A DNA stretch of 64,000 bases from Planctomycetaceae bacterium (GTDB taxonomy: Bacteria; Planctomycetota; Planctomycetia; Pirellulales; Lacipirellulaceae). Shown here piece by piece: positions 11,085 to 39,028 of the stretch; the stretch's first letter is position 1, and each line of letters begins with the position of its first letter. The notes under the pieces were generated by a model. It made no database searches. It saw only the letters and a list, made by a program, of their open reading frames with translations, and was not told the origin of the DNA. The stretch lies in contig PABB01000072.1 of assembly GCA_002702655.1 (NCBI GenBank), positions 1 through 64,000 of the forward strand, in the 5' to 3' direction. A program made the translations under genes and the position numbers.

Positions 11085-11091
11085 CTAATTT

Positions 11092-18716: not shown

Positions 18717-18787
18717 TTGCTGAGAAGGTGGGAGTCGTTAGCAGCTTATCACCTACGAGGGCGGCACGTGATGGACCTTCGCTTGGA

Positions 18788-18807
18788 TGACTGACCTATA
18801 TCAACCT
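18788..18807. repeat. tandem 10-bp repeat CCTATATCAA x2
   Basis: Seen in the convergent intergenic region between rtcB and mcrC. Confidence 0.3.
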
Positions 18808-18817
18808 ATATCAATTG

Positions 18818-23380: not shown

Positions 23381-23804
23381 TAGTCCGCTCCCGTATTGAT
23401 TAAACCTTGAGACGTCCCTGGCAACCTATCAATAGGCAGGATCTCGTGAGTAAGCAAACATGGTGGGGCTCGATCGCTGTTCAGTAAACTGAGGCAGTGC
23501 TCCAACCCGGCCGAACTGAGGGCGCTGTTGCCTTGATCTTGCAATACGGTGTGTATTCACCCCTTGATGTTTGTGTCGAGGTCGAAGCGAACTTAGAAAA
23601 CGCGATGAAGCTCCCAAACCACCATCTCGGATGCGTTGGGGCAAGGGATCAAAACGCCATGTTGGGCAACTCCGTGGATTGTAACAGCTGCGAGGCTTGG
23701 CAACCCGGCCGAGGGCTCACTGCATGAATACGCGGCATTGATGCGTGGTCACAAATGCGCGCCCGGCGGGTATCATAGGGGTTTTCATACACGATCGATT
23801 CCGC

Positions 23805-25028
23805 ATGCCCGACGAAGAGAAGCACGACCCGCGTCAGCCGCTTCCGTACCATTTTGCGATCCGCGACTACCTCAAGAACGAGGAGTCGCAGATTTGGGAG
23901 TGGTACGCGTCGAACCGCGTGCGCGCTGAGCAGAACGAGGCGATCCGCTTCGACCTGCTCAAGTCGACCTACCGCATCGACCGGGACGCCCAGCCGGCCC
24001 TATACGACATGGCCGACAAGGTCGCAAAGAGTCTCGGGATGGAGGTCCCGGTGACGCTCTACCAGGCCCAGAACCCGCAGGGCCTGAATGCGTCGCTGGC
24101 GTACATCCCCGACGAAGCCCACGTCGTCTTGCACGGCCCCATCGCGTCTCGCCTGACCGAGCCGGAACTGCGGGCGTTGCTGGCCCATGAGTTGGGCCAT
24201 CTTCTGCTCCACAGCCGGTGGGGCGGGGACCTCCTGGTCGCCGAGCAGGTCCTCGCGGCGATGACCCACGACCGCGACGCCGACACGCCGCACTTCGCCA
24301 GCGCCCGGCTGTTCGGGCTTTACACGGAGGTGTTCTGCGACCGGATCGCGCTCGACGTGTCGGGCTCTCCGCTGGAGGTGATCTCGATGCTGGTGAAGAT
24401 CGCCACCGACCTGGACGAGGTGAACCCGGAGAGCTACCTGAAGCAGGCCGCCGAGATACTCGGGAAAGGCCCGATCAAGACCGCCGGCCTGTCCCACCCC
24501 GAAGCGTACATCCGCGCGCACGTGCTGCAGCTGTGGCATGAACAAGCCGTCGAGGCAAACGCGCGGATCGCGGAGCTGATCGAGGGCCCGCCCGCGCTCG
24601 ACGAGCTTGACCTCACGGCCCAGGTGCGCGTCATGGGCGTCACGCGGCGACTGATCGACGCCATGCTGGCGCCGAAGTGGCTGCAGACCGACGTGATCCT
24701 CGCCCACGCCCGCCTCTTCTTCGAGGAATACGCACCGGCCGACAACGACATCGCAATCGAATCGCTCCGCGAAGATATCCAACAGAGCGACCAGCCCCTC
24801 CGGGACTACTACTGTTACGTCCTATTGGACTTCGCCTCGGCCGACCGGGAATTGGAGGAAGCGCCTCTGGCGCAGGCGATCGGCGTGGCGGACGCCGTGG
24901 GCCTCGATGATGGCTTTCTCAGCATCGCCGCAAAAGAACTCAAACTCCGCAAGAAGCAGGTCGAGAAGATCTCCGCCGACCGAGAACGCATTGTCGCCGC
25001 CGCGGCCAAGCTGGAGGCGGCGTCATGA
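23805..25028 (+). CDS. soluble M48-like zinc metallopeptidase-fold protein
   Basis: HELGH motif with a downstream EVFCDRIA third-ligand motif, M48/HtpX-like, and no TM segments. The stop overlaps the start of the downstream helicase gene (ATGA). Confidence 0.6.
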   Translation: MPDEEKHDPRQPLPYHFAIRDYLKNEESQIWEWYASNRVRAEQNEAIRFDLLKSTYRIDRDAQPALYDMADKVAKSLGMEVPVTLYQAQNPQGLNASLAYIPDEAHVVLHGPIASRLTEPELRALLAHELGHLLLHSRWGGDLLVAEQVLAAMTHDRDADTPHFASARLFGLYTEVFCDRIALDVSGSPLEVISMLVKIATDLDEVNPESYLKQAAEILGKGPIKTAGLSHPEAYIRAHVLQLWHEQAVEANARIAELIEGPPALDELDLTAQVRVMGVTRRLIDAMLAPKWLQTDVILAHARLFFEEYAPADNDIAIESLREDIQQSDQPLRDYYCYVLLDFASADRELEEAPLAQAIGVADAVGLDDGFLSIAAKELKLRKKQVEKISADRERIVAAAAKLEAAS

Positions 25029-28000
25029 CAACACTCGCCGATTTCCTACGCGACCGTTTCGAGGTCGACGGCTTCACGACCGAAGACGCGCTGGCCAGCT
25101 TCCTACCCCTGGCGCGGGAGGTCCTCGACGCCCACGCGGCGGGCATGGCCGCGCCATTGGACGGCCTCGACGAACTCCGTGTCGAGGGCGTGCGGATCTG
25201 GTTTGAAGAGGCCAAACGACGGGAAGTCCGCCGCGTCAGCAGTGACTTGCAGCGGATCGAACGGGCGGGCCGAGCGGCCGTCGAGATCGTCTCGGAGACG
25301 CGCATTACAACCGAACTGGACGACGGCGTCGAAAAGGTCGTCGACCTGGCGATTGGCGACGCCGACGAGACGCCGACGCGGCCGATTTATCTGCCGGGCT
25401 ATCGCTGCTGGGAGCACCGGCTGGGCGTCCACGACCCGCTGACGGACGTCTTTGCCCTGGGCATGATCCTGGCGAGCCTGGCGTGCGGGCTCGACTTCTT
25501 TGACAAAGAGCAACTCGAAGAGTTTGTCGCCCACCGCAAGAACCTCTTCGCGCTCAACTCCGGCCTGCACCCGGTTATTGCGCGCGTGATCGTGCGGATG
25601 ACCCAGCTCGATCGGCGGGACCGCGCGCAGGACCTCGCGTCGCTGGTCAAGACGCTCCAGAGCTACCGCGACCAGGAAGTCGACTTCGAGTTCGATCTTG
25701 CGCACTCCTCGGAATTCGCCAAGGGATCGAAACGCGACCGGCAAACGGTCATCCTCGCCAAGCTCCGCGAGCGGCTCTTCGAGATTTCCCGCCGCAACAA
25801 GCTGCTGCATTTTCGGCCGACGATGCAGAGCGTGAACCTCACGCACGCGTCGGTGCCGTTGTCCTTCGACATCCAGAGCATCCGCCCCGGGCAGATCCTG
25901 GTCTGGAACGATCGGTTGCATCGCGAGGTGACAGGCGGCAAGCCGATCTCGTTGAACAAGTACCTGAATTTCTCGGAGGTCCTCTACCTGCCAAGCCAGC
26001 TGGAGCGGTTGATCGCCGAGGCCCGGCGCGACCAATCCGAATTCGGCTTCGCCCAGCTGCGGCTGGTGATCTGCTTCTTGCACTGGGCCAACCTCAAGGA
26101 AAAACCGGTCGAGCAGTACGACTCGCCGCTGGTGCTGCTGCCGGTCCAGCTGCGCAAGAAGAAGGGGATCCGCGACACCTACTACCTGGACGTCGTCTCG
26201 ACCGAGGCCGAAATCAATCCAGTGATCCGGCACCAATTCAAGCAGCTGTACGACATCTCCCTGCCCGAGTCGATCGACTTGGCCACGTCGTCGCTCGACG
26301 GGCTGTTTGAACTGCTGTCGCGCAAGATCGCGGCGTCCGAGTCGGCGGTGAATCTCACCAAGATCGATCGTCCGCGTATTGCGCTGATCCACGAGAAGGC
26401 CCGCCGCAAGCTGGACCAGTACCGCCGCCGTGCGCGGCTGGCCGGTCGCGGGGTCCGCAAGTACCTCGATCTCGACTACAGCTACGACCCGGCCAACTAC
26501 CACCCGCTGGGGATCAAGTTGTTCGGGGCCAAGGTGCGGCCCGCGCAGACCCACCTCCGCGAGATCATCGAAGAGAAGCCCCGGCCCAGGACGTTTGCGA
26601 CCGCCGAGCCGGACCCGCCCGTTGCCGAGAAGGAGCGACAGTTCTATGCGTTGCAATCGGGCGGCGAGGCGAACCCCTATGACTGGACGTTCGACCTGTG
26701 CAGCGTAACGCTCGCGAATTTCAAGTACCGCCGCATGTCCCTGGTGCGGGACTACGAAGCGCTATTGGGCGATGGGCTGACGAACCCCGCGTTCGAGGCG
26801 ACGTTCTCCCTGGCGCCGCGCCCGATCGACAACCAGCCGCTCGACGCCCGCGCGTTGGCGGACCGCTTCGACGTGGTGCCCTGCGATCCGACGCAGGCCC
26901 GCGCGATCGCCGAGGCCGAGCTGGGCAAGAGCTTCATTATCCAGGGCCCGCCGGGCACGGGGAAATCGCAGACGATCACCAACCTGATCGCCGACTACGT
27001 CGCGCGGGGCAAACGCGTCCTGTTCGTGTGCGAGAAGCGGGCCGCGATCGACGTGGTCTATGCGCGATTACGGCAGTGCGGCCTGGCCGACCTCTGCTGC
27101 CTGATTCACGACTCGCAGACCGACAAGAAAGAGTTCGTGATGGACCTCAAGCAGTCTTACGAGAAGCTGCTTGAATCGCCGCAAACAAAGTCCCAGGCGG
27201 CTGGCCGGGGCGAGATGATCCAGCAATTGAGCCGGACAATTACGCCGCTGGATCGATTCAGCGCTGCGATGCAGTCAGATCGCCCGGAGCTTGGGACGTC
27301 CGCCCGCGATCTGTTGGACCGCTGCATTGAGCTCCGCCGCGATCTGCCTGAGTTGGATGCCCTCACCCGCGAACAGCTCCCGACGCACGCTGAGTGGCTT
27401 GCCAGCCGGTCCGCAGTGGGGCGTTTCGAACGCGCCCTGGCCGACGCGGGGGGCGGAAAGGTGCTCGCCGAGCATCCCATGCGCATCCTGTCACCGCGGC
27501 TTGCCTCCGAGGAGCACCCGCTGGAGACGATTTCCCACTGCGTGCGTGAAGCTATCCCGCAGTTGGACCAAGCGGAACAATTGCTCGGCCGGTGCGGCGT
27601 GCCTCGTAGCGGGTGGGAACCGTTGGAGCGGGCGGTGCAGCTTACGCAATTCGCGTCTCGACTCAAGGAAGTGGCCGAGGCGGGTCTGGTGCACCTCTTG
27701 GATCCCCAGCACGAGCAGGCCAGGTGGCTGGGCGAGCAGGTCAAGGCCCTGCAGAAGTCCAAGCAGGCGGTTACAGTGGCCGAGCAGGTGAACGTCAACT
27801 GGGCGGAGAAACTGACCGCCGAGGAGACGGGGCTCGCCCTGGAGCAGGCCCGACAATTCGAGCAAGCGAGGTTCGCTTGGCTCTCGCCCGCTTGGTGGCG
27901 GCTGCGCAGCGTTCTGAAGCGTGGTTACCGCTTCGGGGCCCACAAGATTCGGCCGCCTTGGTCGCGAGTCCTTGAGCAACTCGCCAGCGAGCATGAAGCG

Positions 28001-30538
28001 GTCGCAGCTCGGCGTCGTCTGTTGCAAGAGACGGCCGACCGCTTGGGGGTGGACGTCGAAGCTGCGCCGGGGCTGATCGAAACCATTGGCGAGGTCTCCA
28101 CGCACGCCCCGAAGCTTCCCCGTTGGCTCTCCGCGGTTCACGCCGCGCTCGTGAAGTCGCCGCGGGCGGGCGAGATCGTCGCGCGGGTGCTCCAAGCGAA
28201 GACCGCCGTAGAATCCGCTCACGGGCAGCTGGCGAGGATCTCCGACTCGGCCGCTCAGCTGCCGCTTGCTGAGTTGAAGAGTTCCCTTAAGCACGTTAGC
28301 AACAACCTCGAATCTGTTCCCGACTTTCTGGAGTGCATCCGCGAACTGCGGGCGACTCCGCAGGCGGTCGCCGCCGCCCTGCGGACGCTGCCGCATACAC
28401 CGCGCGAAATCGAAGCGGCCGTAGCGGACCGCGGCCTCGCCGAGCTGTATCGGCAGGACAAGCAGTTCGAACGGTTCACCGCCAGAACCCGCCACGCGCT
28501 GGCCTCGCGCCTGGAGGGGAGTTACGACCAATGGCTCGGGCTCAATGCGGCCGAGATCCGTGATCGCGTGCGGCGCCAGTTCCTCAAGAGCCTGCACGTC
28601 ACTGAGCAGCCGGCGGCAAAGCTGTCGGCGGAAGAGAAGGAGTTCAAGCGACGCTACAACCGGGGCCGCCGGGAACTGGAGCACGAGTTCGGCAAGCAGA
28701 TGCGCTACAAGGCGATCCGCGACTTGGTCAGCGACGAGTCGGGCGACGTGGTCAACGACCTGAAGCCGGTCTGGCTGATGAGCCCGTTGAGCGTTTCGGA
28801 CACGCTACCGCTCTCGCCAGACCGGTTCGACGTAGTCATCTTCGACGAGGCGAGTCAGATCACGCTCGAAGAGGCGGTGCCTGCGCTGTTTCGCGCCGCG
28901 CAGTCGATCATCGTTGGCGACGAGATGCAGCTGCCGCCGACCGACTTTTTTTCCGCGAAGCAGTCGGCCGAGGAAGAGGAGGAATTGCTCGTCGAGTCGG
29001 ATGGGGAACTCGTGCAGTACGACCTCGATTCGGGCAGCTTCCTCAGCCACGCTGCGAAGAACCTTCCTTCGACGATGCTCGGTTGGCACTACCGCAGCCG
29101 GAGCGAATCGCTGATCAGTTTCTCGAACTGGGCATTTTACGACGGCCGGCTGCTGACGGTCCCGGAGGAGTCGCTCGCCAATGTCCAGCGGGAGCCGATC
29201 GTCGCCGAATCGCCGGAGCACGGCGCGGTTGGCGCTCAGGAGGCGTTAGCCCGCCCCATTAGCTTCCACCTCCTGCGGCACGGCGTCTATGACAAGCGTC
29301 GCAATCGCGCCGAGGCAGAATACATCGCCGAGATGGTGCGGCAAGTGTTGACCGACTCGCCGCAGCAGACGATCGGGATCGTGGCGTTCTCCGAGGCGCA
29401 GCAGGACGAGATCGAGCAAGCGCTCACGCGCCTGGCAGCCGACGACAAGCCTTTTGGCGAAGCCTTGGAGCAGGCCTACGAGCGGGAGGACGACGGGCAG
29501 TTCGTCGGACTGCTGGTCAAGAACCTGGAGAACATCCAAGGGGACGAGCGGGACATCATTATCCTCAGCGTTTGCTACGGTCGTCCCCCGACGGGCAAGA
29601 TGCGGATGAACTTCGGGCCCATAAACAAGAGCGGCGGCGAGAAACGGCTGAACGTCGCCTTCTCCCGCGCCAAGCAGTACATGGCAGTCGTCAGCTCGAT
29701 TGAGTCGACTGAGATCACTAACGACTACAACGACGGCGCCAACTGCCTGAAGAGCTACCTGCGCTACGCCGAGGCGGTGTCGGCCGGGGATGCGGAGGCG
29801 GCCGCAAGGGTTACGAGAAGTCTCTCCCGTTGGACGCACGACGAACAGGACCAGGCGACGCCCGCAAGGGAACTGCTCGCCGAGCAGCTGGCCGAGCGAC
29901 TCGCGGCCGCGGGCTATCAGGTGGATCACGCCGTGGGGCAGTCCCATTTCCGGTGTGATTTAGCCGTTCATCGCGAGGGAGATTCCGTCTATCGACTTGG
30001 CATCCTCATCGACGGCTGCGGTTACTACGAGCAGTCGGATCTGCTCGAACGCGACATGATGCGCCCCCGGCTGCTGCGTGCGTTCGGCTGGCGGATTGTG
30101 CATGTCCTGGCGAAGGACTGGTACGCCGACAGTCAGGATGTAATGGATCGACTTGTCGCCATCCTTGAAGGGGGTGAGATTGACGACGACGAAGACGTCG
30201 ACCTTGAGCTGGATGACCTCGATGTCACCAATGACTCGACTGCGATCGAGGAAGACGCCGACGCATCCGCAGGGGGCGATACGAATCAGCAAGGTGGCGA
30301 TTCGGACGCGGCTGGCTCAAGCAGCCAAGGCTCGCGCCGATTCGAACTGCGAGATGGCAAGTCGAGCAAGTTCTGGGAAATCTCTCTCGCGGGCGAGCAG
30401 CATTCGGTCACGTTCGGACGAATCGGGACGACCGGCCAGACTCGTACAAAGTCGTTCAACGACGAAGCGGCGGCTCGCAGAGACTGCGAGCGACTTATTC
30501 GCGAGAAGACGAAGAAGGGCTATGTCGAGGTCGACTAG
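25025..30538 (+). CDS. DUF4011-family Upf1-like SF1 helicase with C-terminal DUF559/MTES-like endonuclease domain and terminal WGR domain
   Basis: 1837 aa with an N-terminal DUF4011-like region (LRLVICFLHWANLKE) and an AAA_11/AAA_12 helicase core (GPPGTGKSQT, DEASQ, VGDEMQLPP, GDERD). DUF559-like block GYQVDHAVG...RLGILIDGCGYYEQ...GWRIVHV. An acidic linker is followed by a WGR domain (SKFWEISL...GRIGTTGQTRTKSF...LIREKTKKGY). Confidence 0.85.
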   Translation: MTTLADFLRDRFEVDGFTTEDALASFLPLAREVLDAHAAGMAAPLDGLDELRVEGVRIWFEEAKRREVRRVSSDLQRIERAGRAAVEIVSETRITTELDDGVEKVVDLAIGDADETPTRPIYLPGYRCWEHRLGVHDPLTDVFALGMILASLACGLDFFDKEQLEEFVAHRKNLFALNSGLHPVIARVIVRMTQLDRRDRAQDLASLVKTLQSYRDQEVDFEFDLAHSSEFAKGSKRDRQTVILAKLRERLFEISRRNKLLHFRPTMQSVNLTHASVPLSFDIQSIRPGQILVWNDRLHREVTGGKPISLNKYLNFSEVLYLPSQLERLIAEARRDQSEFGFAQLRLVICFLHWANLKEKPVEQYDSPLVLLPVQLRKKKGIRDTYYLDVVSTEAEINPVIRHQFKQLYDISLPESIDLATSSLDGLFELLSRKIAASESAVNLTKIDRPRIALIHEKARRKLDQYRRRARLAGRGVRKYLDLDYSYDPANYHPLGIKLFGAKVRPAQTHLREIIEEKPRPRTFATAEPDPPVAEKERQFYALQSGGEANPYDWTFDLCSVTLANFKYRRMSLVRDYEALLGDGLTNPAFEATFSLAPRPIDNQPLDARALADRFDVVPCDPTQARAIAEAELGKSFIIQGPPGTGKSQTITNLIADYVARGKRVLFVCEKRAAIDVVYARLRQCGLADLCCLIHDSQTDKKEFVMDLKQSYEKLLESPQTKSQAAGRGEMIQQLSRTITPLDRFSAAMQSDRPELGTSARDLLDRCIELRRDLPELDALTREQLPTHAEWLASRSAVGRFERALADAGGGKVLAEHPMRILSPRLASEEHPLETISHCVREAIPQLDQAEQLLGRCGVPRSGWEPLERAVQLTQFASRLKEVAEAGLVHLLDPQHEQARWLGEQVKALQKSKQAVTVAEQVNVNWAEKLTAEETGLALEQARQFEQARFAWLSPAWWRLRSVLKRGYRFGAHKIRPPWSRVLEQLASEHEAVAARRRLLQETADRLGVDVEAAPGLIETIGEVSTHAPKLPRWLSAVHAALVKSPRAGEIVARVLQAKTAVESAHGQLARISDSAAQLPLAELKSSLKHVSNNLESVPDFLECIRELRATPQAVAAALRTLPHTPREIEAAVADRGLAELYRQDKQFERFTARTRHALASRLEGSYDQWLGLNAAEIRDRVRRQFLKSLHVTEQPAAKLSAEEKEFKRRYNRGRRELEHEFGKQMRYKAIRDLVSDESGDVVNDLKPVWLMSPLSVSDTLPLSPDRFDVVIFDEASQITLEEAVPALFRAAQSIIVGDEMQLPPTDFFSAKQSAEEEEELLVESDGELVQYDLDSGSFLSHAAKNLPSTMLGWHYRSRSESLISFSNWAFYDGRLLTVPEESLANVQREPIVAESPEHGAVGAQEALARPISFHLLRHGVYDKRRNRAEAEYIAEMVRQVLTDSPQQTIGIVAFSEAQQDEIEQALTRLAADDKPFGEALEQAYEREDDGQFVGLLVKNLENIQGDERDIIILSVCYGRPPTGKMRMNFGPINKSGGEKRLNVAFSRAKQYMAVVSSIESTEITNDYNDGANCLKSYLRYAEAVSAGDAEAAARVTRSLSRWTHDEQDQATPARELLAEQLAERLAAAGYQVDHAVGQSHFRCDLAVHREGDSVYRLGILIDGCGYYEQSDLLERDMMRPRLLRAFGWRIVHVLAKDWYADSQDVMDRLVAILEGGEIDDDEDVDLELDDLDVTNDSTAIEEDADASAGGDTNQQGGDSDAAGSSSQGSRRFELRDGKSSKFWEISLAGEQHSVTFGRIGTTGQTRTKSFNDEAAARRDCERLIREKTKKGYVEVD

Positions 30539-30619: not shown

Positions 30620-31792
30620 TCAAGCTATTCGTTTAGTTGGTGACGCGGGCGACCACCCGCCCAGGACTGCCTCAACCTCAGCCTCGTAGGCGTTCACGCC
30701 GCGGTGGACGACGTTCGGCAGCAGGTCGCCAAAGGCGTTGATTTCAAGCAGGTAGTGCGATCGAAACCCAGGCGTAAAGAGCACGTCTAATCCGAGATGG
30801 AGCGACTCTGGGAACAACCGAGCGCACCTCCGGCATGTTTCCCACAATTGACGCTGCTGCTCTTCCGGGATACGGCGCCAGAACTCCTCGATGTCGCCGC
30901 GACGGTTGCCAAGGTGAAGGTTCGTAAGCGGAGAGCGACTCGTTCGGACGACGGTATGGCGGGGCTCGCCCGCGATGACCAGCAAACGCAAGTCGCACAC
31001 CCTCCCGGACAAAGAGGCTTTGGGCAACCACTGCTCCGCGCAGGCTCGATGAGCGGCCAGCGCGTCGATCAGCTGCTGAACTTCCTCCGTGCTCGTGTAG
31101 CGTTTGATCTTGAGCGAATTGTACATCTCCACGGCCCGGGCGCCTTGCACGACTTCCACCGACGTCGTCGCCGAGACTTCGCCTCGGCGTCGGTGGAGTG
31201 CGACGACGCCGCTGGCGGAGGAGCTGTTGGCCAGCTTCACGAAGACGCGTTCGATGCCCTGATCCGACATCTTCTGGCAGAGCTCATCAAAACCGGAGAT
31301 GACGCCAAGTGGCGTGGGCGTGGGAATGCCGGCCTGGCGACACCGCGTCTGACAGAGCGGCTTGTCGAACTGCAATGCGAGCGCATCGGCCGTGGTCGTC
31401 CACAGCTGCTCGGATGACTCCGAGCAGGTCGCGGCCCAGTCCCTCATCGACGTGACGTACCCCAGGTACCACTGCCGCGGCGCGATGATTCTGCCGTGAT
31501 CTCGCGGCAGTTGCGAGAGCGTCTGACCGGCATAGATACACGAGTTCTCACGCTTCGCCGCAGACTCGCCCGCTTGCACCAACAGGTGCTCGACGGCTAG
31601 GTTCTCCCCGGGGGACTCCACGCGGACAATCGCACTGCGTGGCAGGGATTGCAGGGCCGTACTGTCCGCCAGCAAGTCCTCGTAGCTCAGCACGACCGCC
31701 GGCGCCAATCCGCGGCTCTTCAGCGCGTGCTGAAATCCTGCGACCCGTCGGTTCTCCGGGTTGCCGATGATCGCCCACGGGCGCTGGGCCAT
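30620..31792 (-). CDS. ATP-grasp fold protein, STM4014-like
   Basis: ATP-grasp-like C-terminal LEINAFGDL. Neighbourhood matches the STM4011-STM4015 family set. Confidence 0.55.
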   Translation of the reverse strand: MAQRPWAIIGNPENRRVAGFQHALKSRGLAPAVVLSYEDLLADSTALQSLPRSAIVRVESPGENLAVEHLLVQAGESAAKRENSCIYAGQTLSQLPRDHGRIIAPRQWYLGYVTSMRDWAATCSESSEQLWTTTADALALQFDKPLCQTRCRQAGIPTPTPLGVISGFDELCQKMSDQGIERVFVKLANSSSASGVVALHRRRGEVSATTSVEVVQGARAVEMYNSLKIKRYTSTEEVQQLIDALAAHRACAEQWLPKASLSGRVCDLRLLVIAGEPRHTVVRTSRSPLTNLHLGNRRGDIEEFWRRIPEEQQRQLWETCRRCARLFPESLHLGLDVLFTPGFRSHYLLEINAFGDLLPNVVHRGVNAYEAEVEAVLGGWSPASPTKRIA

Positions 31793-32730
31793 TATTCGCC
31801 GACCGCGACGTAGCGGTGCGGCTCGCCATCCCAGTCATCCGGCTGCTGGACGTCGTCCGCGTTGACTGCAGGAACCACGGACTTGAGTTGCGATACGGCC
31901 TCAGCGGACATGTAGTGGAAGTGCATATCGAGAACCTTAAGCTGTCCCAGCCAAGGACAGCCGGAAAGGGCGCTGGCCCCTTCGTCACCCAATGTCCCCA
32001 ACGACAGGTCGAGGGTCTTCAGGGTCGGCGGGACAGATGTCTCCGCGAGGAGCTTGGCCGTAGCGTCGGCGTTGCAGTCATCCCGCAGGCCGAGATAGGT
32101 GAGCCGACTACACGCCCCGCTGGAGAGGAGGCCGCGCAGGTCGTCTTCCGAGACGTCGTTGCCATAGCCATCGTCCCCCAGCCACAGCTCAAGGTGCACG
32201 AGCTCGGGAAACTCGCCCGAGGCCACCTCGCGAACGATTGCGCCGCTCATTCCCCCGGTTTCGATCACCAATTTGCGAAGGGCTTTGTGCCGCGGCTTGC
32301 CTAGTCGTAGATCGTTGCCTCCTCTGATGCAGAATGTTTCCAGCAACGGAAAGGCTTCGAAGATGGGAGACACATCGCTCTGGGTGATCCAGGAGATTTC
32401 GGACTCCTCCATCGTCATCTCGCCAAGGAACAGATGACGAAGGTTGGGCAATCGGTCTCGTGCGCTCACTAGCGCCTCCACGACTGGCCCCGAGTCATTA
32501 CCCTCGCCAGTGCCGCCCCAGTCGCCTATTAGAAGGGCAAGCACTTCGGCGGACCCGGGCGCATCGAGAAATGCCGCGAAGAGGTCGAGGAAAGACTGGC
32601 CCGAATCATGGGCCTCCCAGTCCAGCGCGATGCGGATCGCCTTCGATCCGTCCGACGGTAAAGCGGAATCGCACGAAAAGTCGACTACAGGCAAACCCTG
32701 GAACTCATCCAAGTGAGCGTTGATGGTCAT
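31792..32730 (-). CDS. leucine-rich-repeat-like protein, STM4015-like
   Basis: Repeated LxxLxL segments. Start chosen at MTINAHLDEF. Abuts the ATP-grasp gene. Confidence 0.5.
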   Translation of the reverse strand: MTINAHLDEFQGLPVVDFSCDSALPSDGSKAIRIALDWEAHDSGQSFLDLFAAFLDAPGSAEVLALLIGDWGGTGEGNDSGPVVEALVSARDRLPNLRHLFLGEMTMEESEISWITQSDVSPIFEAFPLLETFCIRGGNDLRLGKPRHKALRKLVIETGGMSGAIVREVASGEFPELVHLELWLGDDGYGNDVSEDDLRGLLSSGACSRLTYLGLRDDCNADATAKLLAETSVPPTLKTLDLSLGTLGDEGASALSGCPWLGQLKVLDMHFHYMSAEAVSQLKSVVPAVNADDVQQPDDWDGEPHRYVAVGE

Positions 32731-32836
32731 GCGGCCCTCGCACAGGACGGGTGTTAGATTGGCTAACCAAGGACCGTAGTGTACAACAAAGCCTACGGTC
32801 GTGGTACTAAAGCCCCTGCGTGGAGAGGAGCATAGA

Positions 32837-33133
32837 ATGTGGCGACATGGCGATGTCTTTATCGAGAAAGCTGGCAGCGTTCCGCCGTCGGCAGCGGAAC
32901 TGCCACACTGTATCCTCGCCAAGGGGGAACTGACGGGGCATGCGCATCGAGTCGAACCTCGCGGCGCCGCAACGCTCTACCGGTCCGGCGATTCGCTTTA
33001 CCTCCGGGTGACAGCGGACCGAGCTACGCTGATGCACGAGGAGCATGCTCCGATCAACCTCGATAAGGGCGTCTATCGCGCCTGGATTCAACGCGAGTAC
33101 TCTCCACAAGAGATCCGCCGCGTAGTCGACTGA
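32837..33133 (+). CDS. hypothetical small protein
   Basis: GGAGAGGAG SD before the ATG at 32837. 98 aa. Confidence 0.35.
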   Translation: MWRHGDVFIEKAGSVPPSAAELPHCILAKGELTGHAHRVEPRGAATLYRSGDSLYLRVTADRATLMHEEHAPINLDKGVYRAWIQREYSPQEIRRVVD

Positions 33134-34120
33134 ATGATGGGCGGTGGCATGTTTCGATGGCTCTACGAGCGGATCAAAGACTTTCAGGCGACGAGGGAGC
33201 TGGCGCGAGCTTACAAGGACGGCTTCCACTTCGATGCGGACGAACACAAGAGAAAAGAAGTGGGCAAGAAGATGGAACTGGCGAACTCGCTAGCCCCCAA
33301 CTCGCGGCGCACTTCTCTTGATCTTTCCGAGTCGGACATTGAAGAGCTGCCGGAAGGGCTCACCGTCCAGTTTGGGCTCAACCTCCATGGCTGCCACCGC
33401 CTGAAGCGACTGCCCGCCGGCTTGCGAGTCGGTTCGCTGAACGTCAGCGATTGCCCGGCGCTCGAGGCCTTGCCGGAGGGCATTGAGGCGTCGTTCCTGG
33501 ACATCAGCGATTGCCCGCAACTCGAGGAGTGGCCCATGACAGGCTCGCTGCAAGTAGGTCGGCTGCGAGCGCGCAACTGCCTCGGCATCCGAACGTTGCC
33601 ACTGTGGCTGGGCAGGCTTTCGCAGCTCGACCTCGCGGGTTGCACGCCGATCGCGGAGCTTCCCGAGGGCCTGGAGGTGACCTCTTGGATCGACCTCGCA
33701 GATACCTCGATTCGATCGCTTCCCGCATCACTGACGGGCGTGGGGCTTCGCTGGAGAGGGGTGGCTATCGACCAGCGCATCGCTTTCCGTCCAGTGGAGA
33801 TCACCGCGAACGAGGTGCTCAGCGAACAGAACGCCGAGCTTCGCCGGGTCAAACTTGAGCGGATGGGGTTTGAACGCTTTCTTGCCGAGTCGAATCCCGA
33901 GCTGCTTGACTCCGACGTAGATGCAGGCGGCGAGCGAAAGCTCTTCCGCGTTGAACTCGGAGACGACGAGCCGCTGGTATGCGTCTCGGTGAATTGTCCC
34001 TCGACGGGCCGCCACTACCTGCTCCGAGTGCCCCCTGCCACGACGAGCTGCCGACAGGCGGTTGCGTGGACCGCCGGTTTTGACAACCCGGACGACTATC
34101 GACCGCTCATTGAGACGTAG
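33134..34120 (+). CDS. leucine-rich repeat protein with conserved C-terminal domain
   Basis: Repeated LPEGL/LxxLP LRR units and a C-terminal RHYLLRVPP...AVAWTAGF block. Confidence 0.55.
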   Translation: MMGGGMFRWLYERIKDFQATRELARAYKDGFHFDADEHKRKEVGKKMELANSLAPNSRRTSLDLSESDIEELPEGLTVQFGLNLHGCHRLKRLPAGLRVGSLNVSDCPALEALPEGIEASFLDISDCPQLEEWPMTGSLQVGRLRARNCLGIRTLPLWLGRLSQLDLAGCTPIAELPEGLEVTSWIDLADTSIRSLPASLTGVGLRWRGVAIDQRIAFRPVEITANEVLSEQNAELRRVKLERMGFERFLAESNPELLDSDVDAGGERKLFRVELGDDEPLVCVSVNCPSTGRHYLLRVPPATTSCRQAVAWTAGFDNPDDYRPLIET

Positions 34121-34128
34121 AGGGCGGA

Positions 34129-34956
34129 ATGGTCGACTGGGACATGAATCAGATCGTCGGCGGTCGCGACATCTTCGTGATGACCCTCGACACGCTCCGC
34201 TACGACGTCGCTCAATCATGCTGGCAACGGGGAGCGACCCCGAATCTGGCCAAGGTGATGCCAGCGACGGGCTGGCAGCGCCGTCACTCGCCCGGCAGCT
34301 TCACGTACTCGGCCCACCAAGCGATCTTCGCGGGATTCCTGCCCACCCCGGTCGGGCCCGGCCCGCACCCCCGCTTGTTCGCGGCCAGGTTCGAGGGGAG
34401 CGAAACGACCACCTCCGAAACGTTCGTTTTCGATGAAGCCACGTGGATTGAGGGCCTTGCTGCCGTGGGGTACCACACGGTGTGTATTGGCGGCGTGGGC
34501 TTCTTCAACAAGCAAACCGCTCTCTGCCGCGTGCTGCCCGGGCTGTTCAGCGAGAGCCATTGGTCGCGGGAGATGGGGGTCGCCAGTGCACAGTCGATGG
34601 AGACCCAGGTCCAGTTGGCGGTGGACCGATTGGGCGAGTCCCCGGCGGATCGACGGATTCTGCTGTTTATAAACGCCTCCGCCATTCACCAACCGAATTG
34701 CCTCTTCGGCATGCAAACCGAGGACTCCTGCTCGACGCAAGCCGAGGCGCTGCAGTACGTCGATGCGTGCCTGCCTCCGCTGTTCGAGGCGTTGCGTCGC
34801 CGAGGTCCGTCGTGCTGCTTGATCTTCTCCGATCATGGGACTGCTTATGGAGAGGATGGCTACCATGGGCACCGTCTTGCCCACCAAGTCGTGTGGGACG
34901 TCCCGTACGCTCAGTTCTTGCTCGACGCCGTCGAGGGCGAGGCAGCCAATGTCTAG
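34129..34956 (+). CDS. DUF229/sulfatase-like (alkaline phosphatase superfamily) protein, STM4013-like
   Basis: N-terminal VMTLDTLRYD metal-site motif of the sulfatase/AP superfamily. Confidence 0.65.
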   Translation: MVDWDMNQIVGGRDIFVMTLDTLRYDVAQSCWQRGATPNLAKVMPATGWQRRHSPGSFTYSAHQAIFAGFLPTPVGPGPHPRLFAARFEGSETTTSETFVFDEATWIEGLAAVGYHTVCIGGVGFFNKQTALCRVLPGLFSESHWSREMGVASAQSMETQVQLAVDRLGESPADRRILLFINASAIHQPNCLFGMQTEDSCSTQAEALQYVDACLPPLFEALRRRGPSCCLIFSDHGTAYGEDGYHGHRLAHQVVWDVPYAQFLLDAVEGEAANV

Positions 34957-36268
34957 TCTCAGCGCAGTCATCAACGGCTCGCCTTATGCCGGCTATACCT
35001 ATTCCTACCCGCACAAGTCGGCCTACCGCACATTCGATCCACCGATTCCGCTGCAGCAGGCCTGGGCCGACGAACCGCGTGACTCGCTGTTTCTCTATCT
35101 GCACGTTCCTTTCTGTGAATACCGGTGCGGCTTCTGCAATCTGTTCACAATGGCGAATGCAGAGGGCGGTTGGGTCGGGCGCTACCTGGACCAGATTCGC
35201 TGCGAAGCGGACGCCGTTGGCAGGATATTGTCAGATGCGAAGTTCGCTAGTGTGGCGATCGGCGGCGGCACTCCAACGTATCTTGACGAAGCAGGGTTGT
35301 CCGAGCTGATGGCAACCGCCAACCTCCTGCTTGGTGAAGAATCGAGAGTCGTGCCAACATCGTGCGAAGCGTCGCCGGCGACGCTCACCATTGGTAAGGC
35401 CCGGCTGCTGCGAGACTGGGGCGTCGATCGACTGAGCGTAGGGGTGCAGACGTTCGATGACGGTGAAGCGCGATCGCTGGGCCGGCCTCAGACGACGCTG
35501 GAGATCGAGCGCGCCATTGATGTCGTGCGCCAGGCAGGGGTTCCCGTTCTTAACCTTGATTTGATCTACGGTTCGAGCGAGCAAAGCTTCGACTCGTGGC
35601 GCCGCACCGTGGATAGCGCCATTCGCCACCAGCCAGAGGAGGTGTACCTCTACCCCTTGTATGTGCGGGAGCTGACAGGGTTGGGTCGAATTGGCGCGGC
35701 GCCCCGGGATGACCGACTTGCGCACTATCGGGCCGGTCGCGACGCTCTGCTCGCCGCCGGGTACGAGCAAGTCTCGATGCGGATGTTCCGCAAGCCGGTC
35801 CCGGTTGCGGCAGCAGGGCCGATCTACTGCTGCCAATCGGATGGCATGGTCGGGCTCGGCTGCGGGGCCCGTTCCTACACGCGAAGCCTGCACTACTCGT
35901 CGGAGTTCGCGGTGGGGCGCGCTGGCGTGCGGTCGATCCTGGAGGGCTATCTCGTACGGAGCCCCGAGTCTTTTCGCTATGCCCACCACGGCTATCGCTT
36001 GTGCGACGGGGAACAGAAGCGTCGGTACCTGCTGCAGGGCCTCCTGCAGTCGGCAGGATTGTCGATCTCGGCCTACGAAGGCCGCTTCGGCACACGGGTT
36101 GGTGAGGACTTCCCTCAAGTGGCCTCGTTGCAGGAGGCGGGTTTGGCCCGGCGGGACAAGGACGCCTTGCAGCTCACGACAGCGGGGCTGGAGCGTTCGG
36201 ATGCGATCGGTCCGTGGCTTTACTCGCCGCAGGTCGTCGATTTGATGGAGGCATTCGAGTGCGTTTGA
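34949..36268 (+). CDS. radical SAM protein, HemN-like, STM4012-like
   Basis: CEYRCGFC CxxxCxxC cluster motif. 8-nt overlap with the upstream gene. Confidence 0.75.
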   Translation: MSSLSAVINGSPYAGYTYSYPHKSAYRTFDPPIPLQQAWADEPRDSLFLYLHVPFCEYRCGFCNLFTMANAEGGWVGRYLDQIRCEADAVGRILSDAKFASVAIGGGTPTYLDEAGLSELMATANLLLGEESRVVPTSCEASPATLTIGKARLLRDWGVDRLSVGVQTFDDGEARSLGRPQTTLEIERAIDVVRQAGVPVLNLDLIYGSSEQSFDSWRRTVDSAIRHQPEEVYLYPLYVRELTGLGRIGAAPRDDRLAHYRAGRDALLAAGYEQVSMRMFRKPVPVAAAGPIYCCQSDGMVGLGCGARSYTRSLHYSSEFAVGRAGVRSILEGYLVRSPESFRYAHHGYRLCDGEQKRRYLLQGLLQSAGLSISAYEGRFGTRVGEDFPQVASLQEAGLARRDKDALQLTTAGLERSDAIGPWLYSPQVVDLMEAFECV

Positions 36269-37134
36269 ATCTCTCCATCCTCTACCGTGGGACGTTGTCG
36301 AGCTGCAACTACGAATGCCCCTACTGTCCGTTCGCCAAGCACTGGGAATCGCCTCAGGAACTGCTCAAGGACAGGCGGGGACTTGAGCGTTTCGTAGACT
36401 GGGTCAGCCGACGTGATGGGGATCGGATTTCCGTGTTCTTTACGCCTTGGGGGGAGGCTCTGGTGCGACGCTGGTACCGCGACGCGATCGTTCAGCTCAG
36501 CCACCTACCGCACGTGCCCAAGGTCGCGGTGCAAACCAATCTATCGTGCCAACTTGCTTGGCTCGAACAAGCGGACGTCGACAAAATCGGGCTCTGGTGC
36601 ACGTATCACCCTGGGGAGACGACCCTCGAATCATTCCTCCGCCAGTGCCAGCGACTCGCCAGCCTCGGCGTCGCGCACAGCGTGGGATGCGTCGGCCTGC
36701 GTGAGCATCTCGTTGAGATTCAGCGACTGCGTGATGCGTTGTCCCCGTCCACCTACCTCTGGGTCAACGCCTACAAGTCGTCCCCCGACTACTACGATGA
36801 GCCGCTGCTGACTTCGCTTGAAGCAGTGGACCCCCTGTTCCCCATCAACAATCAACGCCATGCGAGCCAAAGTCGCGCCTGTCGGACGGGGGTGAGCGTC
36901 GTGACCGTCGACAGCGATGGCGACGTTCGCCGCTGTCACTTTGTGAAGGACAAGATAGGAAACCTTTACGACGAGCGCCTTGAGAGCGTGCTTTACGAGC
37001 GGCCGTGTCCGAATGAAACCTGCGGCTGTCATATTGGCTATGTCCATCTCGAACATCTTAAGTTGGACGGCCTATTCGAAAGCGGTGTCCTAGAACGAAT
37101 CCCCAAGGGACTGGCTGCGTCGGAACAGATGTGA
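36259..37134 (+). CDS. radical SAM protein, STM4011-like
   Basis: CNYECPYC motif. GTG start at 36259 with a GGAGG SD, overlapping the upstream stop. Confidence 0.7.
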   Translation: MRLNLSILYRGTLSSCNYECPYCPFAKHWESPQELLKDRRGLERFVDWVSRRDGDRISVFFTPWGEALVRRWYRDAIVQLSHLPHVPKVAVQTNLSCQLAWLEQADVDKIGLWCTYHPGETTLESFLRQCQRLASLGVAHSVGCVGLREHLVEIQRLRDALSPSTYLWVNAYKSSPDYYDEPLLTSLEAVDPLFPINNQRHASQSRACRTGVSVVTVDSDGDVRRCHFVKDKIGNLYDERLESVLYERPCPNETCGCHIGYVHLEHLKLDGLFESGVLERIPKGLAASEQM

Positions 37135-37149
37135 CAACGCCGCCGCTGG

Positions 37150-38300
37150 TCCCCTCGCGATCGCAGCGCTACGACGTCACATCCTCACGCGGCGGCCCGC
37201 TCATAGTGCTTCAGCACGCCGCCGAGCCACTCGCGACAGACCACCTCCTCGACCTTGCCTGGCGGATCATCTACCTCCGGCCAGACCCCAAGCAGAGGCT
37301 TGTTGTCCTTCCGTTGGTGCGGACGCGCCTGGTGATAGTATTCGAGATACCAAGCCACCAGATGATCGAGGTGCCCCAGGCCGAAGGCGATAAACCGATT
37401 GAGGCACTCGTTTCGGATTGAGCCGATCCAACGCTCCACGAAGGCATTTTGATTTGGCGCCCGCGGGGCGGTGGGTTCGATCGCCACGCCGGCGGAAGTG
37501 AAGACTTGGTCAAACCGCTTGGAGTACTTGAAGTCGAGGTCCCGCACCAAGTAGCTGACTGGGAGGTTCATACCGCGGGCTTGTTCGAGCATCGATTGCG
37601 CCTGCGTCGTGACCCACTTGTCATCCGGCTCGATCGTCGCCGGCGAGCAAATCCCCCGCCGCGAATCGACGTGCAGAAAGGCCAGCACATAGGCCTGCCG
37701 CTGGCCGCTGCTGGTCATCACTATTTTGGAGAAGAAGTCGCATTGCCAGAGCGTGTCGGCATGGACCTTGATGAACTCGTCCCAGCTGCCCTTGCCTCGC
37801 TTGGGACTGGGATGGACTCCCTCGTCTTTGAGGATCGTGCGGACGGTGGTCCGTCCGACGCAGCGGATACGGAGCTTGCGGAGTTCTCCCACAATCCGGC
37901 CGTACCCCCAACCGTTCTCGCGGGCGAGCCTGACAACGATCTGCCGAGTCGTTTCGGACGTGCCTTTACGGCCCATCTTCTTGGCGGGCTCTTGTCCCCC
38001 GCTTCTCCGCTCCAGCCAGCGACGGTAAGTTCGGGGATGAACGATGGAAACCAACTTCAACACATCTGAGCCGATGCCGTCCCCCAGTTCAAGCAACCTC
38101 TGTCGTTCGTCGTTGGTGAGGAAGATGCGCTGCTTCTCGACCCGCTGGCGGGTCATTTCCAACTCGGCCTTGAGGAACAGGAGTTGTCGTCGGAGTTGCT
38201 CCTCGCTGGAGCGGGCGAACAGGAAGAATAGCGGCGAGAACCAACTCGACATTGGCGGACAGTCCTGGCAAAAAACGAGGCGCTGGTGTGGTGACAATCT
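37150..38300 (-). mobile_element. IS481-family insertion sequence (approximate ends)
   Basis: Single transposase ORF with DDE/rve core. Possible imperfect terminal inverted repeats near 37154-37170 and 38286-38300 (TGTGAC-like). Ends not resolved. Confidence 0.55.
37185..38252 (-). CDS. IS481-family transposase (DDE integrase core)
   Basis: HADTLWQCDF, RDLDFKYS and NAFVERWIGSIRNE motifs with an N-terminal HTH region. Confidence 0.8.
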   Translation of the reverse strand: MSSWFSPLFFLFARSSEEQLRRQLLFLKAELEMTRQRVEKQRIFLTNDERQRLLELGDGIGSDVLKLVSIVHPRTYRRWLERRSGGQEPAKKMGRKGTSETTRQIVVRLARENGWGYGRIVGELRKLRIRCVGRTTVRTILKDEGVHPSPKRGKGSWDEFIKVHADTLWQCDFFSKIVMTSSGQRQAYVLAFLHVDSRRGICSPATIEPDDKWVTTQAQSMLEQARGMNLPVSYLVRDLDFKYSKRFDQVFTSAGVAIEPTAPRAPNQNAFVERWIGSIRNECLNRFIAFGLGHLDHLVAWYLEYYHQARPHQRKDNKPLLGVWPEVDDPPGKVEEVVCREWLGGVLKHYERAAA

Positions 38301-38356
38301 TTCCGCACCCCTGGGGTTGGCCCGATTCTTCGCGGCGGCGCGCGGCCGCCATCGGT

Positions 38357-38429
38357 TCCTAGTTTGGGATGCTAACGCTTGCTAATCGATGACAATCATC
38401 GCTAATGTTTGCAAGCCTCCCAAACTAGG
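38357..38429. repeat. 13-bp inverted repeat TCCTAGTTTGGGA / TCCCAAACTAGGA flanking a GCTAA-rich 47-bp spacer
   Basis: Lies immediately upstream of the IS481 transposase start. Confidence 0.4.
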
Positions 38430-39028
38430 ATAGACTCATAAAAACCGCTGTAAATACAGGGTTTCTCAGGGCTGATCGTGGGTCCTCATGACCTCGAGGT
38501 CGTCGCGGCAGGTACATTGCTGCCGAACCGGTGTGCATGACAAGTGGGCCTGCCGAGTAGCTCGTGACGATTCGGTCGGCTTCTTCATTCGGCTCGAAGG
38601 GTTCTGCTTCGTCTGTCGTGACAGCCTGGTCAGGGGCGTTGATCCCCTCGCACTGCTCGGCATTGAAGACGTTGTAGTGTCGCAGTACCGGGATGCAGAT
38701 CTCTTCTCCGCTCTCTTTGTCTTTCGTGGCTGCTTGCTTCCAGAACACGACACCCACTTGGCGACCGACCCAGGCGGCTCGGGGGCCACTTTGGCCCGAA
38801 GTCTCGGTTGTTTCTGTGTCGCGCCAGGGGGCGGGTTATCAGGACGTTCGGTCCGCTCTTCCGGGCCGGAGCGGACTCCTCCCAATACGAAATACGAAGG
38901 GGTGGAGCCAGAGATTCTTTGTCCGCGAAATCGGGCCGTAGGCTGCGCCGTTCCGGACCACCCGCCTGGGACACGTTGCGAATCCCGAACCAATTTGTCG
39001 AAGCCTGAATCGGTGGAAGCCCAATCAC
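38425..39028 (-). pseudogene. ArdC-like (DUF1738 N-domain) antirestriction protein, frameshifted and truncated
   Basis: VLRHYNVFNAEQCEGI matches the ArdC N-domain motif. The upstream part lies in another frame, and the 3-prime end abuts the IS481 region. Confidence 0.35.

Follow-up and report, generated by a model that had tools for sequence, protein, structure and literature searches.

In the pathways to pyrroloquinoline quinone (PQQ; PqqA/PqqE), mycofactocin (MftA/MftC) and pearlins, encoded substrates carrying an invariant C-terminal or Glu/Tyr motif are processed by radical S-adenosylmethionine (SAM) enzymes of the SPASM type, and multiple substrate paralogues can occur. The ligation of groups onto proteins by ATP-grasp enzymes, C-termini included, has been reviewed (PMC4431377): RimK on ribosomal protein S6 and tubulin-tyrosine ligase (TTL) on tubulin both act on acidic tails that end in Glu (PMC4431377), and LysX attaches its substrate to the C-terminal Glu of the LysW carrier (PMC12998189). 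Here we describe a locus from a Planctomycetaceae genome in which one ATP-grasp gene and two radical SAM genes are clustered with a gene for a protein that has an acidic, Glu-terminated tail. The locus occupies positions 30620-37134 of the first 64,000 nt of contig PABB01000072.1 (assembly GCA_002702655.1), a stretch referred to below as the window, and is a complete copy of the widespread five-gene STM4011-STM4015 cassette. The source is a metagenome-assembled Planctomycetaceae genome, and the products of STM4014 and ORF98 match deposited CMJ58_ proteins exactly. The tail in question is the C-terminus of STM4015, and its conservation suggests that it may be the substrate of the enzymes encoded beside it.

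The cassette is already catalogued as a set of hypothetical equivalogs in NCBIfam, and the locus in the window is a split variant of it with an accessory gene pair of phage type, ORF98 and a gene for a DUF6745 protein. A literature search returned no published function for the cassette, only mentions in gene lists, and STM4011, STM4013 and STM4015 were each found only in a gene table. In the searched literature we found no description of the tail motif, of the multiplication of tail-bearing paralogues, of the ORF98/DUF6745 module of phages or of the association of this module with the cassette, and no mention of DUF6745. Carriers of the cassette include Salmonella LT2 and the Crohn's-associated E. 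coli strains LF82 and NRG 857C, and the observation of the tail turns five uncharacterized genes into a concrete question that can be addressed in a tractable host.

Layout and distribution of the STM4011-STM4015 cassette

When the proteins of the window were scanned with NCBIfam, all five STM4011-STM4015 models matched above their curated cut-offs, which bears out the family assignment made in the initial annotation from the letters alone. Reading of the gene junctions showed that the genes fall into two modules, each translationally coupled and the two oriented divergently. The minus-strand module is STM4015>STM4014 and the plus-strand module is ORF98>LRR-DUF6745>STM4013>STM4012>STM4011, with the following features:

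30620..31792, minus strand: STM4014, ATP-grasp ligase, 390 amino acids (aa) (NF038074, 379 bits against a cut-off of 175)
31792..32730, minus strand: STM4015, RNI-type leucine-rich repeat (LRR) protein, 312 aa (NF038076, 301 bits against 275; Pfam LRR_6)
31795..31815, minus strand: codons for the STM4015 tail R-Y-V-A-V-G-E, then stop; proposed modification or attachment site (sequence reading and comparison of homologues)
32731..32836, between the two modules: divergent intergenic region, 106 bp, with AGTGTACAA (alignment of relatives)
32837..33133, plus strand: ORF98, small all-beta protein, 98 aa (phrog_27831, E 3e-16; no Pfam or NCBIfam match)
33134..34120, plus strand: LRR protein fused to the C-terminal half of DUF6745, 328 aa (Pfam DUF6745, PF20530, E 1.3e-23)
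34129..34956, plus strand: STM4013/SEN3800 hydrolase, alkaline-phosphatase superfamily, predicted Thr nucleophile (NF038075, 390 bits against 250)
34949..36268, plus strand: STM4012, HemN-family radical SAM protein with a HemN_C domain, 439 aa (NF006067, 534 bits against 380)
36259..37134, plus strand: STM4011, radical SAM protein with a Cys-rich, SPASM/twitch-like C-terminal region (NF038073, 400 bits against 200)

The ATP-grasp and LRR-like genes had been placed on the minus strand, as is indeed the case for STM4014 and STM4015, and the sulfatase-like gene and two radical SAM genes had been described as an overlapping plus-strand operon, as confirmed by overlaps of 8 nt between STM4013 and STM4012 and of about 10 nt between STM4012 and STM4011. 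The further claim that LRR genes are inserted between the two halves stands in part: a 98-aa open reading frame (ORF) and an LRR protein with a conserved C-terminal block are both there, but only the second is an LRR protein, the first being all-beta. The stop codon of STM4015 and the start codon of STM4014 share one base (TAATG), and the end of the STM4015 gene reads ...CGC TAC GTC GCG GTC GGC GAA TAATG. ORF98, which is preceded by a GGAGAGGA ribosome-binding site, abuts the LRR-DUF6745 gene as TGAATG, and STM4013 starts 8 nt past the end of the latter. For three genes the reading frame extends upstream of the start used here: that of STM4015 is open to 32922, and alignment with homologues points to ATG 32730 as the likely true start; that of STM4012 is open from 34835, with ATG 34949 as the likely start; and that of STM4011 is open from 36214, with GTG 36259, which has a GGAGG 8 nt upstream, as the probable start.

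Within the divergent intergenic region, AGTGTACAA(T) at 32778-32786 resembles an extended -10 motif; it is kept in four planctomycete relatives (L001-L004) and not in the metagenomic locus L081, and we infer from this alignment that it may be a promoter element. A generic sigma-70 scan gave no match in the divergent intergenic region, and a generic scan for promoters and terminators gave matches that were no more frequent than in shuffled sequence. An Rfam scan of 30.0-38.6 kb found no riboswitch and no other RNA family.

To place the locus among its relatives, STM4014 homologues were sought by a pattern scan in one genome per GTDB species, which returned at least 577 species-level genomes. 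The comparative counts out of 80 given below rest on the best 80 of these at least 577 loci, onto which seven proteins of the window were mapped by tblastn. The 80 loci span Planctomycetota, Cyanobacteria, Bacteroidota, Chloroflexota, Actinomycetota, Myxococcota, Burkholderiales, Verrucomicrobiota, Acidobacteriota and one Promethearchaeota (Asgard) metagenome-assembled genome (MAG), and clustering of the five genes extends to at least nine phyla. Complete five-gene loci account for 63 of the 80, and 49 of these 63 have the collinear, single-strand order 4015>4014>4013>4012>4011, which is also found in Salmonella, E. coli LF82 and Deinococcus. Comparison with Salmonella and other carriers, a check that the initial annotation had proposed, therefore gives the same five clustered genes in a different order, collinear there and split here into two divergent modules. 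The divergent halves had been recognized correctly, and the layout is common to close planctomycete relatives (L001-L004, L006) and to the metagenomic locus L081. The block 4013-4012-4011 is contiguous in 53 of 64 loci; broken cassettes separate into [4015+4014] and [4013+4012+4011], and in several loci the first pair is all that lies within 10 kb.

The cassette is an accessory element in E. coli, where it occurs in 158 of 5426 complete genomes (2.9%), LF82 and NRG 857C included, and is always chromosomal. Salmonella and E. coli LF82 have it at one and the same place in the chromosome, with the yih sugar genes on one side and typA on the other. The Promethearchaeota MAG contig (JAFGGO010000093.1, locus L052) carries a full collinear cassette with two tail-bearing STM4015 paralogues and an ORF98/LRR-DUF6745 pair; the presence of a cassette on this Asgard-binned contig may reflect either horizontal transfer or a binning error.

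The catalytic motifs are conserved in all four enzymes, STM4011 to STM4014. STM4012 has the Pfam domains Radical_SAM and HemN_C, and because it shares the HemN fold one could suppose that the radical SAM genes are ordinary HemN/HemW paralogues of the heme pathway whose clustering with the other genes is incidental. The initial annotation had named this as the outcome that would overturn its reading. The model scores and the synteny refute a HemN/HemW identity, and we regard it as scarcely credible: STM4012 scores 123.5 bits against HemW (TIGR00539, cut-off 205) and 119 bits against HemN (TIGR00538, cut-off 325), is also below the cut-offs for HemZ and ChuW and lies far above that of its own family, and the five genes recur together across phyla. 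STM4012 keeps the CX3CX2C motif (C56, C60, C63) and GGGTP, and lacks a fourth Cys after the cluster motif, an absence that sets it apart from HemN. Its closest solved structures are NocN (9p2u, 8.7e-22) and HemN (1olt, 3.2e-21).

STM4011 matches the Pfam models Radical_SAM and SPASM (the latter at 22.2 bits against 21.5). Its conserved Cys residues are C31/C35/C38 together with C145, C223, C241, C265, C270 and C272 (numbered from the ORF start at 36214), and the six extra Cys are consistent with one or two auxiliary clusters. Since the protein begins almost at its CX3CX2C motif, there is no room for an N-terminal RiPP recognition element (RRE), RiPP denoting peptides that are made by the ribosome and modified after translation. 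The idea that STM4011 could be an anaerobic sulfatase maturase for STM4013 was rejected, as it scores 17 bits against TIGR03942 (cut-off 349) and the partner has no formylglycine motif; the reading of STM4013 as a non-sulfatase, discussed below, removes the maturase idea. Single-sequence searches of the PDB with STM4011, STM4013 and STM4014 returned nothing.

The C-terminal tail of STM4015

We extended the STM4015 matches in related loci to their stop codons and obtained a tail alignment of 77 sequences. STM4015 proteins consist of an RNI-type LRR domain, an acidic linker of variable length and a tail that ends exactly at the stop codon. In the tail consensus, R-[Y/F]-x-x-[V/A/I]-[S/G/A/T]-E comes after an acid-rich stretch and runs up to the stop, an example of a tail peptide being DDWDGEPHRYVAVGE; in the window the tail reads RYVAVGE. 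The terminal Glu is present in 77 of 77 sequences and Arg at -6 in 96%, and -5 is occupied by an aromatic residue. Between the last conserved LRR column and the motif there are 22 to 45 residues, and the 15 residues that precede the motif are about 38% Asp+Glu, so that this acid-rich segment of variable length has the appearance of a flexible linker. The C-termini of STM4014, STM4013 and STM4011, which served as a control, vary freely in both sequence and length.

The specificity of the motif was gauged on 3046 stop-to-stop ORFs of at least 150 aa from 87 sequences, the window and 86 genomic loci. The ending R-[YF]-x4-E occurs in 115 of these ORFs, each of them in a cassette neighbourhood, and they are distributed over 76 of the 87 sequences; by rough estimate fewer than one such end would be expected by chance. 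Two to five tail-bearing proteins are encoded in 22 of the 87 sequences, usually in tandem and just upstream of the ATP-grasp gene, and in paralogues from Nostoc, which end in RYCSVAE, RYYSVWE and RYCALYE, the R, Y and E are fixed as the x positions drift. The stop codon of a tail-bearing ORF lies at most 200 nt upstream of the STM4014 start in 62 of the 80 loci. Furthermore, STM4015 and STM4014 remain paired when the cassette splits; this holds for the window and for loci where none of the other three genes lies within 10 kb. LRR relatives without a tail were also found near the cassette (cluster 13). In about 10-14 loci a WGR domain is fused in frame to the N-terminus of STM4015, sometimes duplicated or with a TIGR02996-like motif, and Nostoc has versions of STM4015 with HEAT-like N-termini.

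The cassettes of Nostocales (L011, L012, L014, L020, L026, L027, L038) are expanded. They have up to five tail-bearing paralogues, a WD40 protein that shares the N-terminal motif of these paralogues and has no tail, an ankyrin-repeat protein between STM4012 and STM4011 and, upstream, a gene for an Hsp70-like protein and two more small conserved genes.

The initial annotation had suggested peptide or small-molecule modification chemistry, with a possible precursor peptide at 32.7-33.2 kb. The chemistry is still the best general reading, but the candidate substrate has moved: the invariant C-terminal tail of STM4015 suggests itself as a better candidate than ORF98. For the enzyme that would act first, the window STM4014 passes one Pfam model, ATPgrasp_YheCD (29.7 bits against 26.8), and belongs by sequence to neither of the families that hold RimK, LysX and TTL (PF08443 and PF03133). 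Members of the STM4014 family give matches below threshold to RimK (18 bits against 21, Niastella homologue), to TTL (14.5 against 20.1, E. coli homologue) and to a 'sugar-transfer associated' model. Its best solved-structure match in a profile search of PDB sequences, a weak one, is the ATP-grasp domain of cyanophycin synthetase, a domain that extends a C-terminal carboxylate. A cognate protein with an acidic, Glu-ending tail is nevertheless at hand, as STM4015 adjoins STM4014.

We take as established which five families are present, the modular order of the genes, the tail and the multiplication of its paralogues, the coupling to the ATP-grasp gene and the intact catalytic motifs. On this footing we propose that the cassette may be a protein-tail maturation system, with the terminal Glu of STM4015 as the target of the ATP-grasp enzyme and the STM4015 tail as that of the radical SAM enzymes. 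This is the reading we prefer, at a confidence a little short of even. STM4014 would activate the carboxylate of the terminal Glu as an acyl phosphate and form an amide, either by adding an amine or amino acid or by closing a ring. STM4012, which is HemN-like and resembles class C radical SAM methyltransferases, and STM4011, with its putative auxiliary clusters of SPASM/twitch type, would next alter the tail, for which the conserved Arg-Tyr is the most plausible site. A phosphate carried by an intermediate or substituent would be dealt with by STM4013, with the help of a phosphatase of the haloacid dehalogenase (HAD) family in many other genomes. The product would be an LRR protein with a chemically altered tail or, alternatively, a small molecule derived from the tail and built on a protein scaffold, in the manner of PQQ, mycofactocin and pearlins. 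The mechanism is drawn by analogy: ATP-grasp ligases elsewhere act on acidic, Glu-terminated protein tails, and radical SAM enzymes of the SPASM type (PqqE, MftC) process Glu/Tyr or C-terminal motifs of encoded substrates. If confirmed, it would represent a new C-terminal chemistry of proteins that combines ATP-grasp and radical SAM enzymes.

Several observations weigh against tail maturation. In enterobacteria the tail has diverged: Salmonella has ...DIYMNAMYTE and E. coli LF82 has ...EVYMNPMFTE, in which the acidic stretch, an aromatic residue and the terminal Glu are retained while the Arg and the spacing are lost, which leaves the terminal Glu alone as universal. Many polar residues of the STM4015 LRR domain are themselves invariant, and this suggests that the protein does more than passively carry the tail. 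The cassette encodes neither a protease nor an amidase, so that release of a small product would be unexplained. ORF98 and DUF6745 proteins have invariant C-termini even in phages without any ATP-grasp enzyme, and C-terminal invariance alone is thus no proof of a ligase substrate. Finally, the two phosphoesterase families found with the cassette, alkaline-phosphatase superfamily and HAD, suit small phospho-metabolites more naturally than they suit a protein tail.

The last point concerns STM4013 and its partners. The hydrolase had been labelled DUF229 and sulfatase-like, but a Pfam scan returned no DUF229 match and the protein has no formylglycine motif; its Pfam matches, to Sulfatase (22 bits against 25), Metalloenzyme and Phosphodiest, are all below threshold. 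The invariant residues of the family are D21, T59, H63, N182, H187, D235, H236 and H248, among which D21, D235-H236 and H248 preserve the metal site of the alkaline-phosphatase superfamily. T59-Y-S-A-H falls, in a placement made by eye, at the spot of the sulfatase C/S-x-P-x-R motif. On the strength of this metal site, of Thr59 and of the lack of a formylglycine motif, STM4013 is read as a phosphoesterase or phosphotransferase and not as a sulfatase. In 20 of the 80 loci STM4013 is directly preceded by a gene of the HAD_2 type, and a gene of the Cof type follows STM4011 in Salmonella and E. coli and lies close by in Deinococcus and Catellatospora. No HAD hydrolase gene was found in the window.

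These enzymes would also fit a small-molecule pathway, in which they and the HAD phosphatase make or remodel a phosphorylated metabolite (a sugar phosphate, a nucleotide or an amino-acid derivative) and STM4015 acts as a regulator or scaffold whose tail docks onto one of the enzymes. Such a pathway would account for a phosphoesterase of the alkaline-phosphatase superfamily with a Thr nucleophile that is always present, for a HAD phosphatase that recurs in three different positions or subtypes, for the match of ATP-grasp members to the 'sugar-transfer associated' model and for the lack of a peptidase. It leaves unexplained, however, why the STM4015 C-terminus is invariant on a variable acidic linker, why tail-bearing paralogues are multiplied beside the ligase and why STM4015 and STM4014 travel as a pair. 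We consider this pathway unlikely, if still a serious contender, and prefer tail maturation.

The ORF98/DUF6745 module and the genes around the cassette

The enzyme operon of the window is headed by two genes that are not among the five. ORF98 has the invariant residues H4, D6, H35, H37, H67, E69, H70 and a C-terminal Asp, and its motif G-x4-H-x-H-x3-E suggests a small metal-binding, cupin-like protein. An AlphaFold2 (AF2) model gives a confident all-beta fold (pLDDT, the model's per-residue confidence, 84), and a structure search with this model found no convincing structural neighbour. A profile search of 1.84 billion cluster representatives returned 6780 relatives at E<=1e-3, nearly all of about 100 aa. 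The last ~11 residues (...EYSPQEIRRVVD; window 33101-33133) are predicted to be disordered (pLDDT <50) yet are highly conserved, the protein ending ...V-x-D with the C-terminal Asp in 80/80 viral and 25/25 genomic homologues. Its partner in the window starts with a helical region at the N-terminus, continues with an LRR solenoid and ends in the second, C-terminal half of DUF6745; the DUF6745 match (83.8 bits against a gathering threshold of 27) covers model positions 84-206 only, the N-terminal half being replaced by the LRR domain, and a structure search with the whole model was dominated by LRR matches. DUF6745 proteins mostly end in E-T or E-S. Profile searches of PDB sequences with ORF98 and DUF6745 gave no usable relatives.

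Both genes are at home in phages. In IMG/VR at least 94 contigs encode an ORF98 relative, and a DUF6745 protein is encoded next to it on the same strand in 63 of 81 viral loci, with no other recurring neighbour; many of the remaining viral contigs stop inside the gene of the DUF6745 partner. In 20 of 80 viral contigs the end lies at most 1 kb downstream of the ORF98 homologue, inside the DUF6745 gene, and in only four at most 1 kb upstream; the cause could be that assembly breaks off in a hypervariable gene or that the gene lies close to the ends of the genomes. None of the ORF98-bearing IMG/VR contigs carries the STM cassette. STM4014 has one match in viral contigs, and its near absence there means that no exchange of the cassette with phages was seen. 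The match is in IMGVR_UViG_2627853558_000003 (L167), the sole contig of the viral collection with STM4015 and STM4014, where it runs to the contig end, and the contig is probably host DNA at a prophage border.

Of the 80 loci, 25 have the ORF98/DUF6745 pair next to the cassette, as does Deinococcus, in varied positions and orientations. It stands beside the cassette in Planctomycetota, Chloroflexota, Actinomycetota, Cyanobacteria, Deinococcota and the Asgard MAG, and recurrence in varied positions and orientations argues for a functional linkage and not a single chance insertion. ORF98 and DUF6745 thus form a self-contained, two-gene module of phage type that is recruited as a recurrent accessory of the cassette. 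A very common phage pair, of which ORF98 has ~6,800 cluster representatives and no Pfam family, is here physically linked to a bacterial enzyme system. One 20-kb locus (L083) has ORF98 and DUF6745 at 10001-12094, followed only by a 261-aa product with a weak match to HemN_C, and no other cassette gene was called there; it looks like a decayed cassette.

As a small ORF at the head of an operon encoding radical SAM enzymes, ORF98 invites the explanation that the locus is a classical RiPP cluster and ORF98 its precursor peptide. We consider this very improbable, as ORF98 is absent from about two thirds of cassettes, is conserved over its whole length and confidently folded, and occurs in phages paired with DUF6745 and without any cassette enzyme. 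The search for a precursor in 32.7-33.2 kb that the initial annotation had proposed came out negative; the region holds ORF98. ORF98 was accordingly rejected as a precursor peptide: it is a folded, phage-type protein missing from most cassettes. Nor does the locus otherwise resemble a graspetide or radical SAM RiPP cluster, as no short leader-core precursor was found and STM4011 cannot accommodate an RRE.

If the recurrent pair is taken together with the tail, one may go further and propose that STM4015-type LRR proteins represent a new class of protein-templated chemistry, in which an R-Y-x4-E-COOH tail is processed by four enzymes and the process is tied to the ORF98/DUF6745 pair of phages. 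We regard this as possible but doubtful. If true, it would imply a new protein-bound modification or cofactor or a released molecule derived from the tail, and a functional tie to ORF98/DUF6745 would imply a role in phage-host interaction.

A related question is whether the cassette belongs to a defence island, and for this the flanking genes of the window have to be considered:

17565-18716, plus strand: RtcB RNA ligase
18818-19852, minus strand: McrC-like protein
19849-21981, minus strand: AAA_5 McrB-like protein
25025..30538, plus strand: neighbouring 1837-aa protein with DUF4011, an Upf1-like helicase, an MTES_1575 nuclease and a C-terminal WGR domain (PADLOC PDC-S37, E 4e-212)
37185..38297, minus strand: rve-type DDE transposase, 370 aa, not part of the system (IS481, NF033577, 90.5 bits against 224; IS3, 78 against 160)

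The stretch with RtcB and McrBC (17565-21981), upstream of the cassette, is defence-island-like. The PDC-S37 gene is convergent with STM4014 and possibly linked. A gene for an M48-like peptidase overlaps its start by 4 nt (pair 23745-30538), and the same pair, with 70% identity in the 1837-aa protein, flanks the cassette in Aeoliella (L004, 11236-17869) in the opposite relative orientation. Wadjet genes lie ~3 kb from the cassette in L081.

Given these neighbours, the cassette might be an anti-phage or conflict system in which WGR/LRR proteins serve as sensors of an invader and the enzymes supply a signal or a toxic product, with ORF98/DUF6745 as a co-opted sensor, decoy or regulator. Besides the WGR-bearing helicase-nuclease, McrBC and RtcB of the window and the Wadjet genes of L081, the patchy distribution (at least 577 species genomes, a small minority of complete E. 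coli genomes), the WGR fusions to STM4015, the recruitment of a phage-borne gene pair and a few loci with ivWA, bpMoxR or GT4-conflict neighbours would speak for such a role. On the other hand, none of the five proteins has a significant match in PADLOC-DB v2 (the cassette proteins gave weak matches only, to PDC-M51A at 1.4e-6 over 80 residues and to pVip at 1e-3), 125 flanking proteins from 64 loci showed heterogeneous flanks and no recurrent defence family, the site in Salmonella and E. coli LF82 is no obvious defence island and STM4014 hardly occurs in viral contigs. We consider a defence role quite unlikely. It concerns the biology and not the chemistry of the cassette, and would therefore be compatible with either tail maturation or a small-molecule pathway.

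Some further features of the flanks were recorded. A few flanks among L001-L080 encode ivWA and ivWA-helical_N (three proteins each), bpMoxR (two) and GT4-conflict (two), numbers too small for an association; the ivWA, bpMoxR and GT4-conflict families belong to NTP-dependent 'ternary' conflict systems. In the window, a 1223-aa minus-strand ORF (13162-16833) has a sole match, to DUF6896, at residues 96-157. Downstream of STM4011 nothing is conserved with relatives. The initial annotation had let the cluster end at an IS481 insertion, which is not established, since the transposase is below the cut-offs for IS481 and IS3 and a search of 36900-38800 gave no terminal inverted repeats. Just upstream of the transposase gene, at 38357-38430, is a 17-nt inverted repeat (94% complementary, 40-nt spacer), the outer arm of which overlaps a minus-strand match to a sigma-70-like promoter (38454-38427).

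Comparison with described systems

The closest described locus is that of Salmonella Typhimurium LT2, which like the window has all five families, clustered and translationally coupled. The two differ in that the window order is split into two divergent modules, the enzyme operon of the window is headed by the phage-type ORF98/LRR-DUF6745 pair, the window lacks the Cof-type HAD gene after STM4011 and its STM4015 tail is the canonical RYVAVGE and not the divergent ...YMNAMYTE. For the accessory pair, the counterpart is in Microcystis phage Ma-LMM01, where gp175 (an ORF98 homologue) is followed on the same strand by gp174 (DUF6745). Unlike the protein in the window, gp174 is a full DUF6745 without LRR, and the phage pair is located among genes for a DNA polymerase, a uracil-DNA glycosylase (UDG) and a dUTPase with no STM cassette nearby.

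With LysW/LysX, RimK-S6 and TTL-tubulin the window shares an ATP-grasp ligase paired with a protein that has an acidic tail ending in Glu. However, the partner is a 300-aa LRR protein and not a small zinc-ribbon carrier, a ribosomal protein or a tubulin; homologues of LysZ, LysY, LysJ and LysK are absent; and STM4014 is related to RimK and TTL only below threshold and is accompanied by two radical SAM enzymes and a phosphoesterase. Compared with PQQ, mycofactocin and pearlins, the candidate substrate in the window is part of a large folded protein, namely its tail; an RRE or PqqD-like chaperone, a peptidase and a PEARL ligase are absent; and the HemN-like second radical SAM protein and the hydrolase of alkaline-phosphatase type have no counterpart in those pathways. 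The class C (HemN-like) methyltransferases NocN, NosN and TbtI share with STM4012 the CX3CX2C motif, GGGTP and HemN_C, and NocN is its best solved relative; the match to NocN, at E 8.7e-22, extends only over the core, and STM4012 is at most a putative member of this methyltransferase subclass.

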